From assembly GCA_951813565.1 (NCBI GenBank), contig OX638351.1, positions 4,736,001-4,800,000 of the forward strand: DNA of 64,000 bases, read 5' to 3'. The notes below the pieces were generated by a model. It saw only the letters and a list, made by a program, of their open reading frames with translations, was not told the origin of the DNA and made no database searches. Both the position numbers and the translations under genes were made by a program. This stretch comes from an uncultured Poribacteria bacterium (lineage in GTDB: Bacteria; Poribacteria; WGA-4E; WGA-3G). Below are positions 9,506-33,018 of this stretch, one piece after another (the first letter of the stretch is position 1; each line of letters starts with the position of its first letter).

Positions 9506-11122
9506 CTACTTTTGGTCGTCTTCTGATGGTGGTTGTGGTGCATTAGTTGGAGGTTGACGACCATCTTTCGGAACAAAACGCCCATTTTTTGACGAAGGGA
9601 CAGGTCGTTTACCGAAGATGTTTTCAAGCTGTTTGGCAAGTTCGGCGTCCTTCTCAGCAAGTCTGCGGAATCCTTCCTCGGGACCATATTCTTGTAAGAG
9701 TTTCTCGGCATTTTCAAAACGTGCTGGGCTAAACTGTTCTTGGATTGTTTTTTCAATGCTTTCATCCGTAAAGATTCCCGGTAGTGAAGACATAAACCTT
9801 TTCTGGAATTCTGTCTCTAATTCAGCATCACTCATGTTTGCCAATCTTTCAAAATCCCGGAGTGCTCTATCAAAATCTTCCCATTCAGCCTCGGCTGCTG
9901 CCCGTTCTGCTTCTACCGCCTCTCGTGCCAATGTCGCGCGGTCTGGTGGCAAGGGGCCTTCAATAGTATCGGGTTGTTGTGTCCATGTGCCTTTCCATCC
10001 ACGTGAGCGGAGGTCTTCTTCAAAACCTTCTGGGAGTGTTACGCCCTCTGGCGGCATCCAATCTTTCGGTGGGAGTTCCCAGCTACGTACCATCTCGCGG
10101 GTAACATGTGGAGGCTTTTCAGAAAGTACGTTGTAATCCTCATCAAGATAGATGACTTCCCACCCTTCAGGGTGTTCGCCTCGATAGATGAGATCAAACC
10201 GTTGTTTTGTTGTCATCATCTCTCCCCACATGTCCACGCCGGGGATGCCATCCTCGAAACTTCTGTGCACGTACAAGCGGTTCCGCTTTCCTGGAAGAAA
10301 CACATCCGGGGCATCATCAAAAAATAACCCGCCACTTACATCAGGGTCCGCTGCCTCGGCATTATCTACCTGTTGACTTTCCCAGACCTTCCGCTCAATA
10401 TACGCACGCTTATAATCCTCAAAATTGTCTTGTGGTAGCACTCCCCGTCGCCCTGATGCCCACTCCTCGGGGTTGTCTTCCGCACGCACGAGGTGGTAGC
10501 GTATATCCATCATACGCGGATAATGCGCTTCTGTTGTGATAGTAACACCCATATCCAGGAGTTCTTGTATCCATTCGGCGCGTGGATATTTTGCCTCCAC
10601 GGTGGCATCACTCGGATAGAACCGGTTATACCATGTATCGTACGTCTCCATGATCGCCTCGGGTGTCTGTGGTCCTTTATGAGGTAGCGAACCTTTTCTG
10701 GTAGTCCACGGTCCATGCTTTATTTTTGACGGATCTGGAGGACCTCCAAGGTTATGCGGCATAATCCTTTCAGCAAGTGCCATCGTCTGTAAGTATAGTT
10801 GTTTACGGATTGAGGCTATTTGTGCTTCGCTAACAGGTTTAAATTCAGTCTCTGTCAAATAATCTTTTAAGAGAAATTCAGTTTCTCTCTCAATCCACTT
10901 TTCCCATCGGGAATCAAATTTCCCTTGAACTACCAGTTCTTTTTTGTCAACTTGTAATGTGCTTTCACTATCTTCACTGTAGTGCTCAGATTCGTTTACA
11001 CGGTCAACAATATTTATACGATCAGACACTATTTCTCTATTAGTGCCTTTAAAGATAAACAGAACAACGATAATTAACAAAATTAAGAACGGAATTGAGA
11101 CGTATAATTTTTTAAGTGTCAT
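9506..11122 (-). CDS. Hypothetical membrane-anchored protein, 538 aa
   Basis: Long ORF, N-terminal TM helix, acidic and Pro-rich C-terminus; no family recognised. Confidence 0.8.
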   Translation of the reverse strand: MTLKKLYVSIPFLILLIIVVLFIFKGTNREIVSDRINIVDRVNESEHYSEDSESTLQVDKKELVVQGKFDSRWEKWIERETEFLLKDYLTETEFKPVSEAQIASIRKQLYLQTMALAERIMPHNLGGPPDPSKIKHGPWTTRKGSLPHKGPQTPEAIMETYDTWYNRFYPSDATVEAKYPRAEWIQELLDMGVTITTEAHYPRMMDIRYHLVRAEDNPEEWASGRRGVLPQDNFEDYKRAYIERKVWESQQVDNAEAADPDVSGGLFFDDAPDVFLPGKRNRLYVHRSFEDGIPGVDMWGEMMTTKQRFDLIYRGEHPEGWEVIYLDEDYNVLSEKPPHVTREMVRSWELPPKDWMPPEGVTLPEGFEEDLRSRGWKGTWTQQPDTIEGPLPPDRATLAREAVEAERAAAEAEWEDFDRALRDFERLANMSDAELETEFQKRFMSSLPGIFTDESIEKTIQEQFSPARFENAEKLLQEYGPEEGFRRLAEKDAELAKQLENIFGKRPVPSSKNGRFVPKDGRQPPTNAPQPPSEDDQK

Positions 11123-11208
11123 TGTATATATCCTTGTATTTGAAAACGGAACGTGATATGTGAACTGCGTGGCAGTTTAGAACTTACCACGCAGTAATAG
11201 CACCTTGC

Positions 11209-11769
11209 TTACTGAGTATACCGATAACTTGCAGAATCAGTAAAAGATGACCAAGGCCCGAAGTTGCCGCAAACACCAGAGTCTTTTGCGTCATACATGC
11301 CGCCGCCCTTGTATTTACTTCTACCCTGTGTATCTGGTGTTCTCGTTTTCACTGTAGTCTCTTTGGTTGTAATTGTGCCATCTTCGTTTGTTATTTCTAT
11401 CTCAAAAGTTTCTACTGTAACTGTAAGTTTTGCGTAAATTGCGCCTGCGTCAGTATCTGGTGATGCATCATTGCCGCTATAGATTGTAACATACGCAGAA
11501 GCTTCACCACTTAAGTTCACTGGAATTCCACTTTCTGTGGCTGCTTCCATAATTGAAGCAGCATTGACAATACCGGGTGATGCCGAGGCGTTTGCCCCAG
11601 ATTCAGTTGCATCAGCGGAAACGCTAAAACTCCAACCTTCGTCGTAGTTTGTATCAGAAAAAGAACCAATTGATATGTTGCCATCTTGACCATGTGTTTG
11701 CAAAATAACGCCGCCAATGGCAAAAAGCGTGGTAAGGAACAGCGTGATTACAACAACTTTCTTATTCAT
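11209..11769 (-). CDS. Hypothetical secreted protein, Ser/Ala/Thr-rich
   Basis: AAGGAG SD, signal peptide. Confidence 0.8.
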   Translation of the reverse strand: MNKKVVVITLFLTTLFAIGGVILQTHGQDGNISIGSFSDTNYDEGWSFSVSADATESGANASASPGIVNAASIMEAATESGIPVNLSGEASAYVTIYSGNDASPDTDAGAIYAKLTVTVETFEIEITNEDGTITTKETTVKTRTPDTQGRSKYKGGGMYDAKDSGVCGNFGPWSSFTDSASYRYTQ

Positions 11770-11904: not shown

Positions 11905-12219
11905 TCAAACAAAATTAATCTCCTCCTGCCTCCTACAGGCGGAGGCAGGAATGCTACAGTGTAAACATAAAAAGCCCGCGACGAGATGTTCTGTCCGAAA
12001 CAAAACGCGCAGGCGCGAAAATATCGCAGATTTTAAATCCTGCGATACGACCTTGTGATATCCAATAATTAACGATTGTGAAATGGGGGGGGTAAACACT
12101 GTGAACTGAGAATAAACACCGAACCAGAGCGCAGCATCAATAGCCAAACTTTGCTCAGGTCGCTGCATCTGGCACAACTGCTTTTTGAATTGTAGTGGTG
12201 TTCGCTGTCGGTTTCTCAT
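11905..12219 (-). promoter_or_regulatory. Conserved leader with uORF, C8 tract and two hairpins (copy 1)
   Basis: DNA- and peptide-level similarity to 32191-32571; G8 at 12085-12092 on + strand. Confidence 0.7.
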
Positions 12220-29243: not shown

Positions 29244-30002
29244 TTAATTACTCTTAAGTGTTCCCCAGGTGACCGTGAGTTTTCCTTTGCTCTCAACAGG
29301 CAGTCCGTCAGCCGCAAGTTTTTTAATTTCGTCAGCACTTAGCGTCCGGTCATAAATCATGACTTCGTCAATTATACCTTTGAAATATCTGGCACCGCAG
29401 CATTCGTCCCATCCGAACTTTAAGTTCATCACTGTTTGCTCAATGTGGGGAATCTTATTTTCAGCGGAATCGAGTTTGCCATCTTCTCTGTGATAAATAT
29501 AACTCGTCGCTTTATCGGGTTCAATTGCTATCGCGACTAATGCCCATTTATCTTGTGGAATATTAGGTGCCCCTTGCCAATTCCATGTCGTTGCGGCGTT
29601 ATTATTCCAAACATACGTCAAGGTGTTATTCGCAGCAACACCCAACCAGAAAGAAGCAGGATCACTTCGCCCCACAACAATACCAGACCAGTCGATCGTT
29701 TTCCAACCATTGATTCGCGCAACCACCGTAATCGCGGTCGTAACCAACTTAAACTCGTTATCAACAACCGCATGAGCACCGGCGCCATCAAGTTCAAGAG
29801 CGCCACCCATCCAACCGTCTTTGGTCCACTTTGCGCCTTGTTCCAAGGCAGCATCATGTCCATTGCCTGATTTATCTTTTCCATTACCATCCAGCGGCCA
29901 GTATCCAACAAGTCCATCACTCAGTCCCGCCGCAAAAGCAGCCACAGCCCAAAAACTAATGGTAACGACTAAAACCGTAATAACGCTCACTCTGTATTTC
30001 AC
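29244..30002 (-). CDS. Secreted LamG/concanavalin-A-like domain protein with conserved C-terminal tail
   Basis: LVGYWPLDG, FKGIIDEV.IYDR.L; tail PVESKGKLTVTWGTLK. Confidence 0.85.
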   Translation of the reverse strand: MKYRVSVITVLVVTISFWAVAAFAAGLSDGLVGYWPLDGNGKDKSGNGHDAALEQGAKWTKDGWMGGALELDGAGAHAVVDNEFKLVTTAITVVARINGWKTIDWSGIVVGRSDPASFWLGVAANNTLTYVWNNNAATTWNWQGAPNIPQDKWALVAIAIEPDKATSYIYHREDGKLDSAENKIPHIEQTVMNLKFGWDECCGARYFKGIIDEVMIYDRTLSADEIKKLAADGLPVESKGKLTVTWGTLKSN

Positions 30003-30123
30003 CTTTAACTCCTTTTATTGCTGATTGTATCAACCTCGATCTCCAGTGTGGATATATGAGATTTGATTTTGGTAGAGAAAACAGCGACAGATACTATCAC
30101 ACAAGCATCTCTATTAGCGCGTA

Positions 30124-30368
30124 TATGGTGAACTTTATAGTAAAACCCACAATTACCTGGACATTGGCGAGGTTAGGAAACCTCGCCAGCGCGAGCGTGT
30201 AGGGATTGTTGTTGATTGAAATGTGAACATATTTTCGGATTTTACTATAAAATGGGACACATTTTCTGTCCGAGTGATCTCCGAATCGTGACCCAATCCA
30301 CTGATACTTGGGAATCGGAGTTCCCTCGGACAACTGAAAATGTCGTGTTAATTCTAAAATTTACTATG
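30124..30368. mobile_element. Family-A MITE (30136-30249) nested in the left end of another family-A element
   Basis: tatggtgaactt|...|aaatgggacacattttctg; the uninterrupted end is seen at 29177-29230. Confidence 0.75.
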
Positions 30369-30711
30369 CATGAATCAGTTAACTGAGGGGTGCGCATAAA
30401 TAATTCCGATGTTAAATATGCGCTTAAAGGTAATAGGCACACGCCGTGGGTTTCCGTCCACAAGTTCAAAGAGGCGCAGCATGCCACACGGGGAATGCCA
30501 TAAGGCATTCGGACCCGGTGAATGACTAAAGACGAATGCGCTTTTGGCATTCGCCATGATTCATACCGTTGATTTCTTGATTTGGCGCATGCTGCGTTGA
30601 TTTGGCAATGAATTGCGCGACTACAAACGCATTTCTATAAATCAAGCGGTGCCTGGCGTCTGTCCCTGTCTGTGTTGATGCGCCAAATATTTATGCACAC
30701 CCCTCAGGTAA

Positions 30712-31374
30712 CTAACGATCCCTTTTGATACCTCCCCAGGTTGTTGCTAATTTATTCAGCGGTTCTACTGGGGTGCCATCTCCTTCAATATCATCACCAG
30801 AAACCGTGAAGTCATCAAAACTTACCCCAGTTTCCCATCCCCAGACACCGACTTGGCCAGCACCATATACAGCATCAGCAAATTCACCTTGTTCTTCGCC
30901 ATCAATTGAGAGTGCCATGATATCACTCCCAACGCTAACTTTCATGTCATGCCATTTGCCTCTTTCAATTGTGATGTTTTTTCCTGGCAGTTGACCGATA
31001 TTGTCGCGGGCGGTCCAACCACCTGTTTTGTGCCGCCAGAGTTCTGTTTTGTTATCCGGCACATTAAAATAAAAGACATAGTATTCCATTTCGCTTTTTG
31101 CGCGGAATGCAATGCCTGCCCAATTACCTTCATCAATGCGAACTTTCGCTTCAATTGTGTAGTCTGTCCAAGCGACATCACCAACGAGGGAATGTTCCGC
31201 TGCGGCACCCTTATTAAGCTTATAGATGCCGTCTTCTACGCTCCAGTTTCCATTAGCAACCTTCCAGTCGTCTGCACCAGAGTCAAAAGTCCATAATTGT
31301 GCACCTGCGAAACTGTTAGAGACAGACACTGCTATGAAGCAAAATCCGATCATAATCAAAAATAAACGTTTCAT
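30712..31374 (-). CDS. Secreted DUF1080 (3-keto-disaccharide hydrolase-like) protein with conserved C-terminal tail
   Basis: W.DYT..AK, GIAFR, FDDF.V; tail PVEPLNKLATTWGGIK. Confidence 0.75.
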   Translation of the reverse strand: MKRLFLIMIGFCFIAVSVSNSFAGAQLWTFDSGADDWKVANGNWSVEDGIYKLNKGAAAEHSLVGDVAWTDYTIEAKVRIDEGNWAGIAFRAKSEMEYYVFYFNVPDNKTELWRHKTGGWTARDNIGQLPGKNITIERGKWHDMKVSVGSDIMALSIDGEEQGEFADAVYGAGQVGVWGWETGVSFDDFTVSGDDIEGDGTPVEPLNKLATTWGGIKRDR

Positions 31375-31472
31375 TAATTCTCCTTTTTATCCATATAAAC
31401 CCAGACTCGCGTTGGGTTATTTCAATGTGAAAAGCGCGCTGTCAAAGCGCGCCTCCAGTAATAAAGGGTTTC

Positions 31473-32156
31473 TCAACGAACCTGTTTGAGACGTCCCCAT
31501 GTTGTTGTAAGTTTGTGGCTTGGGTCAACAGCGAGCGTATCCTCTATGTTATCACCGGAAACGGTGAAATCATCAAAACTTGCTCCAGTTTCCCATCCCC
31601 AAACCCCAACTTTGCCTTTATCATAAACATTATCCGTATCTTCGATCTGTTTTTCATCATTGATATACAGCGTAAATTTGTTGTCCTCAACGACTACCTT
31701 CACATCAAGCCATTCATCGTTTGCAATTTTGACGCCTCCAATTGCAGGTGGCTGAGAAATGTTGTCACGTGCAGCCCAACCCCCGGCTTTGTGTCGCCAC
31801 AGTTCAGATATATTGCTGGGAACATTCAAATAATAGACATAATATTCCATTTCGCTTTTGGCTCGGAATACAATACCTGCCCAATTTCCCTCATCAAGTC
31901 GGATTTTCGCCTGAATGGTATAGTCGTCCCAATCTTCTTCACCAATAAGCGAATGTTCAGCTTGACCACCCTTGCTAAGCTGGTAGACACCATCTTTGAT
32001 TTGCCAATTGCCGTTAGCAACTTTCCAGTCCCCGTAATCTTTCTCAAAATCCCACAGTTGTGTCCCTGCGGATGCTGGAAAAGAAATCAGCACACTACAA
32101 AGAATGAAAAGACCCAAAACGGCTAATTTCGTCAATACGCTATAATTTTTTAACAT
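31473..32156 (-). CDS. Secreted DUF1080-like protein, paralogue of the downstream gene
   Basis: Shares FRAKSEMEYY and GVWGWETG; AAGGAG SD before ATG 32156; tail AVDPSHKLTTTWGRLK. Confidence 0.75.
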   Translation of the reverse strand: MLKNYSVLTKLAVLGLFILCSVLISFPASAGTQLWDFEKDYGDWKVANGNWQIKDGVYQLSKGGQAEHSLIGEEDWDDYTIQAKIRLDEGNWAGIVFRAKSEMEYYVYYLNVPSNISELWRHKAGGWAARDNISQPPAIGGVKIANDEWLDVKVVVEDNKFTLYINDEKQIEDTDNVYDKGKVGVWGWETGASFDDFTVSGDNIEDTLAVDPSHKLTTTWGRLKQVR

Positions 32157-32190: not shown

Positions 32191-32571
32191 TTAATATACA
32201 TAAGATATGAATTGAGTTTCACTTGGTGCGTCCTGTTCAATTATATCCTGTTGTAGTGCATGGTCCGCTTGCACAACGAGGAGACAAACATTGAAGTATT
32301 CTCCAATGCAACAACAAAAACCCGCGACGATATGCCTCGTTTGATAACGAAGCACGTGCGGGCACAAAAATATCGCAGCATATAAATCCTGCAATAAGAC
32401 CTTGTGATATATATGAAAAATTAACGAATTTTCGGGGGGGGGGGGGGGGGGGTATAATGAAGCTCTGGTTAAAACAAATCCAGCGGGTATTGTGCAAAAA
32501 CAATCCTGTTCAGAAAGTAGGAACCCTACGAACTTATTTCCGATTGACGATTTCGCATATCTATACTTCAT
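32191..32571 (-). promoter_or_regulatory. Conserved leader with uORF, C19 tract and two hairpins (copy 2)
   Basis: G19 at 32434-32452 on + strand; similar to 11905-12219. Confidence 0.7.
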
Positions 32572-32646
32572 TTTATCCTCAGGTATCCAGTACTAAACTG
32601 CGTGGCATTATAATATTCTATTCGCGTCATGCGATTTGTAAAATTC

Positions 32647-32675
32647 ATTATACTTAACATCTTGTAGAATGTCAA
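32647..32675 (-). promoter_or_regulatory. Consensus sigma70 promoter driving the leader
   Basis: TTGACA-17-TATAAT on the minus strand. Confidence 0.8.
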
Positions 32676-33018
32676 CTTTTCTTGAAAATGGGTGTGTAAA
32701 TATTTTGGCATTAACCATGTCATTTTCTTGTTGGAGGGCTTCGTCCGCCCGATAAATCCAAATCAACGCCTCATGCGCGTATGGCATTCACATTAAACAC
32801 CGCTAACCTTAAGAAAATGTCCAGGTGTTTTTAGATTTTACTGTAATCTGAAAGTATAGAGCTGGACACCTGTTCTTACAGAAGATAGGCATTTAACAAA
32901 CGATTGAAAATATGGAGAACTAAATGACCTGTGAAATTGAGTATGTAAAATTGCCATGAAGAATTACGGAGACTGTGTGTCGGACATGAATGTGCGGATT
33001 CGAGGTCATACTCATTAT

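Follow-up and report, generated by a model that had tools for sequence, protein, structure and literature searches.

In Escherichia coli, the pyrBI and rph-pyrE operons are controlled by translation-coupled attenuators, in which a closely following ribosome blocks the formation of a hairpin; the pausing of RNA polymerase that lets the ribosome catch up in pyrBI is sensitive to uridine triphosphate. Simple-repeat phase variation is known to act at coding frames and promoter spacers. The homopolymer tracts of Neisseria, Haemophilus, Campylobacter and Bordetella lie inside the regulated gene or in such spacers. The rph-1 frameshift of E. coli K-12 makes ribosomes stop early and thereby lowers pyrE expression (cf. 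Jensen 1993). Here we analyze a 64,000-nucleotide (nt) stretch of an uncultured Poribacteria bacterium (GCA_951813565.1, contig OX638351.1; "the window", to whose positions all coordinates refer), which carries on its minus strand two copies, A and B, of a poly-C leader element that is repeated across the genome. An earlier note, made from the sequence alone, had proposed that this leader is a reusable attenuator ahead of secreted-protein operons, with tract length as the switch. The data point, with a probability of roughly 0.58, to a portable leader that works as a translation-coupled attenuator set by the length of its C tract.

As described in PMC5021804, coupling of the ribosome keeps intrinsic terminator hairpins from folding and is affected by poly-proline sequences and elongation factor P (EF-P); the pyrE attenuator is mentioned in PMC3203608. 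In the proposed mechanism, the transcript from the element's promoter would begin with a leader open reading frame (ORF) of 42-52 codons, which near its end would cross a poly-C tract that encodes proline in every frame. In the frame of a conserved TAA, the ribosome would be released about 21 nt before a first hairpin and could not reach the hairpins, so that hairpin 2 and its U-tract would form and terminate transcription (OFF). If the tract is off by 1 or 2 bases (modulo 3), the TAA would be missed and the ribosome would translate hairpins 1 and 2 and the U-tract, thus keeping the terminator unfolded and allowing RNA polymerase to proceed into the genes that encode exported or envelope proteins (ON). 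This state would be heritable and reversible through slipped-strand mispairing of the C run. DNA slippage is the most likely setter of the frame; a ribosomal +1 shift at CCC-C or slippage of the polymerase could act in addition to it or in its place.

The strongest result is the design of the reading frames across the terminator. It was followed in a first set of 27 copies fitting a tract-plus-box pattern (out of 35 sequences, 8 diverged or partial ones being left out), in an enlarged set of 60 copies (one of 61 was dropped for too little upstream DNA) and in a sister-genus set of 30 loci from two genera. Over the interval from the tract to the end of the U-tract, stops in the TAA frame total 64 in the 27 copies (the TAA itself accounts for 27 of them), compared with 14 and 5 in the other frames. 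These two frames are fully open in 20/27 and 23/27 copies, against about 5.8 in shuffled sequences (maximum 13 in 1000 shuffles), and they are open past the U-tract in 50/60 and 47/60 copies of the enlarged set. In the sister genera, a frame stopping within 30 nt of the tract is found in 30/30 loci, 17 of which have two early-stop frames, and a frame open far past the U-tract in 29/30, the remaining copy being without a U-tract by the pattern used. Pooled over 89 copies, 40 have one open frame and 49 have two, while none has zero or three: in 89/89, one or more frames close early and one or more remain open across the terminator. Reduced to 16 cluster representatives (75% identity), the pattern comprises 5 with one open frame and 11 with two, a mean of 1.69 versus 0.56 in shuffles.

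In silico, tract length modulo 3 decides between the early TAA and an ORF that crosses the terminator, the crossing being the hallmark of attenuators of the pyrBI/rph-pyrE type. In 25/27 copies, 17-27 nt (typically about 21 nt) separate the early stop from hairpin 1 downstream, too far for a terminating ribosome to melt this hairpin. Read-through frames, as assembled, are present in copies A and B and in a copy with a C34 tract at genome position 133,492. The earlier proposal that tract length sets whether ribosomes cross the terminator is supported in silico by this frame pattern (89/89) and by the difference in tract length within 20 of 23 close pairs of copies.

The tract itself is maintained throughout the family. 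A scan of 185,579 species genomes for a stop box plus terminator end, in which no C-run was required, returned 46 stretches, 39 from Candidatus Poribacteria and 7 from records of metagenome-assembled genomes (MAGs) labeled "uncultured bacterium"; a C-rich tract, with pure runs of 3-16, lies 8-13 nt before the box in 46/46. A C-run is likewise present in 30/30 sister-genus loci. Tract lengths range from C6 to C34 in the own genome and from C3 to C16 in relatives, with some tracts interrupted, and reach the roughly 7 or more bases at which homopolymers of simple-sequence contingency loci are long enough to slip. Elsewhere in the genome such runs are avoided: C/G runs of at least 8 bases number 8 versus about 40 expected from independent, identically distributed composition, and all 8 lie inside family elements, as do 10 of the 28 runs of at least 7 bases. 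This avoidance outside the family constitutes the signature of a contingency tract.

Tract length is also far from invariant between copies. Specifically, the length of the C-block differs in 20 of 23 copy pairs with at least 88% flank identity, and only 4 of these 20 differ by a multiple of 3; one differing pair has C13 and C15. In another, two loci about 4 kb apart on one chromosome (L087 and L088) carry C6 and C10, respectively, at 96.7% flank identity and in different frames, and a third close relative in another genome carries C11 in the early-stop frame. In public assemblies of short-read run X1, possibly the source sample, the contigs that meet the C19 tract of copy A each carry 19 bases and end at both of its edges. 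One low-depth X1 contig (depth 5.45) has 2 more bases, corresponding to C21 and the early-stop frame, a difference that sequencing or polymerase chain reaction slippage could mimic; C19 is uncovered by contigs in runs X4, X8 and X9. Loss of mismatch repair was considered as a cause of tract instability and ruled out, MutS and MutL being intact.

The leader ORF, or upstream ORF (uORF), looks translated and frame-constrained from its sequence. In most copies, it is preceded by a ribosome-binding site and lies upstream of the terminator: a Shine-Dalgarno (SD) sequence, mostly GGGG or GGGA, 8-10 nt before an ATG or GTG start, opens an ORF of 42-52 codons that crosses the tract. This ORF ends at the TAA of an invariant box, TTCGTTAA, in 17/27 copies and in 36/60 of the enlarged set (20 expected). 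Copies in frame with the TAA span tract lengths from 4 to 16, and the C13 and C10 tracts of near-identical paralogues both keep its frame. In the sister genera, the box has diverged and the ORF still ends at an early stop in 23/29 copies. The ORF contains 2-11 consecutive proline codons, and its predicted peptide shares motifs across genera, R.(I/L/V)NT.I.K at the N-terminus and NYKL.PPP.HIR at the C-terminus. A coding constraint shows in the ratio of nonsynonymous to synonymous substitution rates (dN/dS), with a pairwise median of 0.64 and 80% of 56 pairs below 1 (29 in-frame ORFs, pairs of 70-97% identity), which indicates the weak purifying selection usual for leader peptides. The peptide has no Pfam or NCBIfam family, the best E values being 0.035 and 0.047, each in 1 of 27 members. 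In most copies (for example L056 and L059), the uORF SD consists of a G-run followed by TTTAAC and the tract is preceded by GTTAA; TTAAC and GTTAA each occur twice.

The same architecture could also operate with a frame that is changed during expression, either by a ribosomal +1 shift on CCC-C or by a slip of RNA polymerase, in which case the leader would report the status of translation, by way of EF-P, m1G37 or prolyl-tRNA (Pro-tRNA), instead of, or besides, acting as a heritable switch. Both alternative frames are indeed kept open (50/60 and 47/60), the C run is a chain of CCC-C sites, and most assembled copies are in the early-stop frame (36/60), as would be expected of a fixed ground state. 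According to PMC7577736 and PMC4519876, tRNAPro is naturally prone to +1 shifts at CCC-C, which are restrained by m1G37. On the other hand, tract length differs in 20/23 close pairs and copies occur in all three frames, so DNA-level change does occur, and interrupted tracts such as CCCTCCC persist. Programmed frameshift sites of the prfB and dnaX type pair a slippery sequence with an SD-like element upstream or a structure 5-9 nt downstream. No typical frameshift stimulator was seen: the nearest conserved structure, hairpin 1, lies about 30-45 nt from the tract, and inspection by eye, with no systematic search, revealed no SD-like element just upstream of the tract. A frame set in expression rather than in the DNA is unlikely to be the principal explanation.

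The hairpins are conserved as RNA structures, in line with the earlier claim that the stems persist despite many substitutions. In the alignment of the 27 sequences, 88.7% of the cells that should pair do so, compared with at most 51% when the partners are slid, and changes on both sides are found in 17 of 37 pairs versus 9.9 +/- 1.8 in shuffled alignments, with 0/500 shuffles reaching the observed value. Such changes affect 3 of 8 pairs in hairpin 1, 6 of 16 in hairpin 2 (helices 3 and 4, with 89-94% of cells paired) and 8 of 8 in hairpin 3, the strongest covariation being found in hairpin 3 and the distal part of hairpin 2. The G+C stem and U-tract of hairpin 2, placed between the start of the leader ORF and the downstream gene, have the form of an intrinsic terminator and are predicted to act as one. 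The U-rich spacer that follows hairpin 1 is exactly 7 nt long in 26/27 copies; hairpin 1 and this fixed spacer form a pause-like arrangement, which is suggestive only, of a possible pause hairpin.

A conserved antiterminator was not found: in a rough test, the 5' arm of the terminator has a mean pairing probability of 0.33 before the 3' arm is available, exceeding 0.5 in 7/60 copies. In the model, this lack of a competing structure fits direct occlusion of the terminator by the ribosome. It also bears on a second alternative, a fixed-frame leader peptide of the mgtP/mgtL type that senses proline or EF-P, in which ribosome stalling alters RNA folding and tract length is incidental. In favor of such a device, the short leader ORF carries 2-11 consecutive proline codons close to its end, and hairpins come after it. 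Specifically, in mgtP/mgtL of Salmonella, a proline-codon-rich leader ORF upstream of stem-loops controls attenuation, as described in PMC3641672, and PMC5021804 describes how EF-P maintains coupling at poly-proline. However, the mutually exclusive stem-loops of such leaders did not emerge from the rough test, which gave no conserved alternative pairing for the terminator 5' arm, and a ribosome stalled on the tract would stand more than 40 nt from hairpin 1. Moreover, a fixed frame leaves both the two stop-free frames across the terminator and the fast change in tract length unexplained, and the downstream genes are without a link to proline. We therefore regard a proline-sensing leader of this kind as improbable.

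Upstream of the uORF, a sigma-70-like site with up to 2 mismatches is present in 29/60 copies versus 3/60 shuffled sequences. In one subfamily (own copies at genome positions 3971418 and 3024362; loci L048, L042 and L027), hairpin 3 has the form of a second terminator, with a long stem and T6. Beyond it stands a promoter-like TTGAnA-17-TATTAT, and the palindrome CACG..CGTG in the spacer of this site is a possible operator.

A third alternative holds that the element is a stand-alone gene for a 45-residue protein, or a dual-function small RNA (sRNA) with its own terminator, whose C-run is a surface for RNA pairing (for instance with G-rich SD sequences, including its own), and that the operons use promoters of their own. 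The element does have a promoter and a terminator, the peptide motifs are conserved across genera, and promoter-like sites follow the terminator in 20/59 copies. Furthermore, long-range pairing between the G-run of the uORF SD and the tract is predicted with P > 0.5 in 21/34 copies. This pairing is nevertheless no stronger than in interior-shuffled controls (0.60 versus 0.52), and the peptide belongs to no Pfam or NCBIfam family. A gene acting in trans would also leave unexplained the strict co-orientation with, and short distance to, a gene for an exported protein, as well as the stop-free alternative frames across the terminator. An independent gene or sRNA is thus a doubtful account of the element, about on a par with the proline sensor.

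The distribution of the element agrees with the earlier view of a reusable leader. In the 5.43-Mb genome, nhmmer seeded with BLAST hits finds 9 full copies (E <= 1e-59) and 2 weak or degenerate ones (E of 1e-4 and 9e-4), and downstream of each of these 11 copies lies an ORF in the same direction whose N-terminus looks hydrophobic by eye. BLAST detects the element in 9/12 further genomes of the genus and in none of 8 genomes that represent three other families of its order. A covariance model built on the core (166 positions) matches 76/99 genomes from the family to which the organism belongs (by genus 28/37, 44/57, 1/2, 1/1 and 2/2) and 0 of 51 genomes sampled across eight other families of the phylum, where the element is to be read as not found rather than as absent. 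A scan of metagenomes of the Joint Genome Institute (JGI) added 5 loci (L108-L112). Rfam yields no match in the window at the gathering threshold, and between 31900 and 32900 only two chance-level matches (E of 3.6 and 5). The high copy number also raised the possibility of a mobile element, such as a miniature inverted-repeat transposable element (MITE); no search for terminal repeats was made, and this reading was set aside because the orientation to the downstream gene is fixed in 11/11 own copies. The srp RiPP precursors of sponge symbionts (RiPPs being peptides made by ribosomes and modified after translation) are unrelated 84-residue NHLP-type peptides as presented in bioRxiv 10.1101/2023.06.09.544420.

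Copies in many loci per genome sit ahead of operons, and the genes that follow them are characteristically those of exported proteins, as had been suspected from the two copies in the window. In 41/49 copies, the N-terminus encoded by the first SD-led ORF beyond the terminator is hydrophobic and signal-like, compared with 44/172 for a genome background chosen by the same rule; 11 of 60 copies have no downstream gene in the available DNA, and several of the 8 misses, including copy A, are start-codon miscalls. Pfam assigns the downstream genes to PD40 propellers, DUF1080/LamG lectin-like proteins (copy A), WD40 repeats and one methyltransferase, and most have no family. Three own-genome copies (L051, L052 and L059) precede paralogous two-gene units that encode a 175-195-residue exported protein without a Pfam match and a PD40 beta-propeller of about 350 residues; the other copies precede unrelated genes.

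Several observations weigh against a tract-set, translation-coupled attenuator. A properly started uORF that reads through the terminator is found in only about a fifth of the copies (13/60, and 5/29 in the sister genera), and a canonical start at the conserved place is absent in some, for example in 3 of 9 own copies. A clear upstream promoter is missing in 31/60 copies, and promoter-like sites with up to 2 mismatches lie between terminator and gene in 20/59, so the operon may have its own promoter in part of the family. Poly-proline slows ribosomes in every frame and could uncouple them from RNA polymerase even in the ON frame. With intact MutS and MutL, slippage does not go unrepaired. Heterogeneity of the tract within the population is only hinted at, by contigs that break at the tract edges and by the one longer contig, and homopolymer lengths in long-read MAGs can be wrong, although C19 agrees with the short-read contigs. 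Lastly, the copies are kin, and the counts given here overstate their independence.

Copy A shows the complete layout, and the features listed for it in the earlier note are all present on the minus strand. A consensus sigma-70-type promoter, TTGACA-17-TATAAT (12/12 matches in the promoter scan), occupies 32647-32675. By sequence reading, a GAGGA SD (32576-32580) precedes the leader ORF, which starts with ATG at 32571 and extends as assembled over 126 codons (32191-32571). The frame-setting C19 tract (32434-32452), read as LYPPPPPPENS, is followed by the conserved TAA (32421-32423) within the box TTCGTTAA; in the majority frame, this TAA closes the leader ORF. Because the distance from ATG to TAA is 148 nt, C19 places the ORF out of frame with the TAA, and C18 or C21 would end it there; with C19, it misses the TAA, continues across both hairpins and the U-tract, and closes 35 nt short of the first gene's ATG. 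Hairpin 1 (TATTGCAG..CTGCGATA, 32371-32396), then the 7-nt U-rich spacer, and hairpin 3 (GCATTGGAG..CTTCAATG, 32289-32309) are defined by RNAfold and covariation. Between them lies the intrinsic-terminator-like hairpin 2 with its U-tract (32311-32363), composed of an interrupted G+C stem (32363-32321) and TTTTTGTTGT (32320-32311). A simple terminator scan does not include hairpin 2 among its listed terminators because the stem is interrupted. For the 141-nt stretch, the structure predicted by RNAfold consists of just these three hairpins; its energy is -48.5 kcal/mol (z = -5.74), and 0/200 shuffles do as well.

The tract of copy A was also the starting point for a further suggestion of the earlier note, namely that the plus-strand G-run tunes an antisense promoter with the adjacent TATAAT as its -10 element. 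This TATAAT does stand directly after G19 on the plus strand of copy A, but among the copies read it is confined to this one, the others having TATTAAC, TAGTAAC, TAACT and similar sequences at this place. Moreover, only G's are found where the -35 element would be expected, no gene lies in that direction, and a simple scan lists no plus-strand promoter there, which together make an antisense promoter highly improbable.

Around copy A, several further features were observed. A second promoter-like site on the minus strand, TTTACA-16-TAGAAT (10/12 matches, 32615-32642), directly follows the consensus promoter. Just upstream of that promoter, at 32685-32860 on the plus strand, two adjacent short repeats (query positions of about 5-105 and 94-163) yield at least 40 matches across this genome, with a summed contig depth above 1000 in sponge-associated runs, and they have the look of repetitive extragenic palindromic (REP) or MITE-like sequences. 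The downstream genes of copy A (29244-32156, minus strand; first gene start at 32156) all three have hydrophobic N-termini. By Pfam, those at 31473-32156 and 30712-31374 encode DUF1080/3-keto-disaccharide-hydrolase-like proteins, and the one at 29244-30002 encodes a LamG-like protein. Between the second and third gene, an ORF-like stretch at 30245-30550 (minus strand) carries the motif ..CLLPLSAYLTSEL, which is found again close to the degenerate copy at 248 kb of the genome and probably belongs to another dispersed repeat.

Copy B, which had been put forward as a diverged homologue with a C8 run, indeed aligns with copy A over a core of about 110 nt. On the minus strand, its leader ORF as assembled comprises 104 codons in a read-through frame (11905-12219), again with 148 nt from ATG to TAA. 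The C8 tract lies at 12085-12092, the conserved majority-frame TAA at 12069-12071, hairpin 1 at 12022-12047 and the terminator-like hairpin 2 with U-tract at 11963-12014. Two downstream genes of 186 and 538 residues (9506-11769, minus strand) have hydrophobic N-termini and no Pfam match. The frame shared by copies A and B ("SLI..YHKV.."), which had been taken as conserved, does not hold up as a coding frame of the family: most family uORFs stop at the TAA before the hairpins, and the resemblance arises because the RNA hairpins are conserved at the nucleotide level.

If this reading is true, simple-repeat phase variation would act at a third kind of site, namely a leader ORF governing the termination of transcription, and a regulatory cassette could be copied ahead of unrelated operons. 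A contingency leader in the full sense, providing about 5-15 independent heritable ON/OFF switches per cell that leave the exported proteins unaltered, with a C-run that may also allow ribosomal +1 slippage dependent on EF-P or m1G37, stands at about even odds. Uncultured sponge symbionts would then be able to vary their surface and secreted proteins combinatorially, with a bearing on host recognition, phagocytosis and phage pressure. In addition, the avoidance of C/G runs of at least 8 bases outside the family offers a clean signature for finding such loci in metagenomes, and the compact design could serve as a tunable stochastic switch. In the full-text searches made, with subscription journals outside the coverage, no description was found of a repeat-switched leader ORF gating a terminator, or of this element in Poribacteria.

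In relation to known systems, the element shares with contingency loci a homopolymeric C/G tract (7-34 bases), a tract length that differs between close copies, envelope or secreted targets and the avoidance of such runs elsewhere. Here, however, the tract lies in a separate leader ORF and would act via termination, leaving the regulated proteins unaltered. In Helicobacter pylori, the RepG sRNA targets the G-repeat of tlpB. In both cases, a variable homopolymer in the 5' leader would modulate expression after the start of transcription, but the repeat of tlpB is the target of a trans-acting sRNA, whereas the present tract has no known partner of this kind and lies inside a putatively translated leader ORF. 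In cwpV of Clostridioides difficile, as presented in PMC2784873, phase variation takes place between promoter and ORF, and an intrinsic terminator is proposed in the OFF transcript of this surface protein gene. The position of the switch, the leader terminator and the kind of target are alike, while cwpV relies on recombinase-driven, site-specific DNA inversion independent of translation, in place of a repeat tract and leader ORF; neither inverted repeats nor a recombinase are evident in the present element. With mgtP/mgtL, in turn, the element has in common a short leader ORF with consecutive proline codons upstream of stem-loops that control transcription into an operon; those leaders, as described, use alternative stem-loops and sense Pro-tRNA, whereas none were found here and the evident variable is the reading frame.

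The closest likeness is to pyrBI and rph-pyrE, in which a leader or upstream ORF reaches or crosses an intrinsic terminator and no antiterminator hairpin is needed, and to rph-1, where frame likewise decides coupling. The differences are that the frame would be set here by a maintained hypermutable C-run and not by accident, that no link to nucleotide pools is evident, and that the Poribacteria module occurs about 5-15 times per genome ahead of unrelated operons for exported proteins. Taken together, the element is best read as working like pyrBI/rph-pyrE attenuation combined with simple-repeat phase variation.

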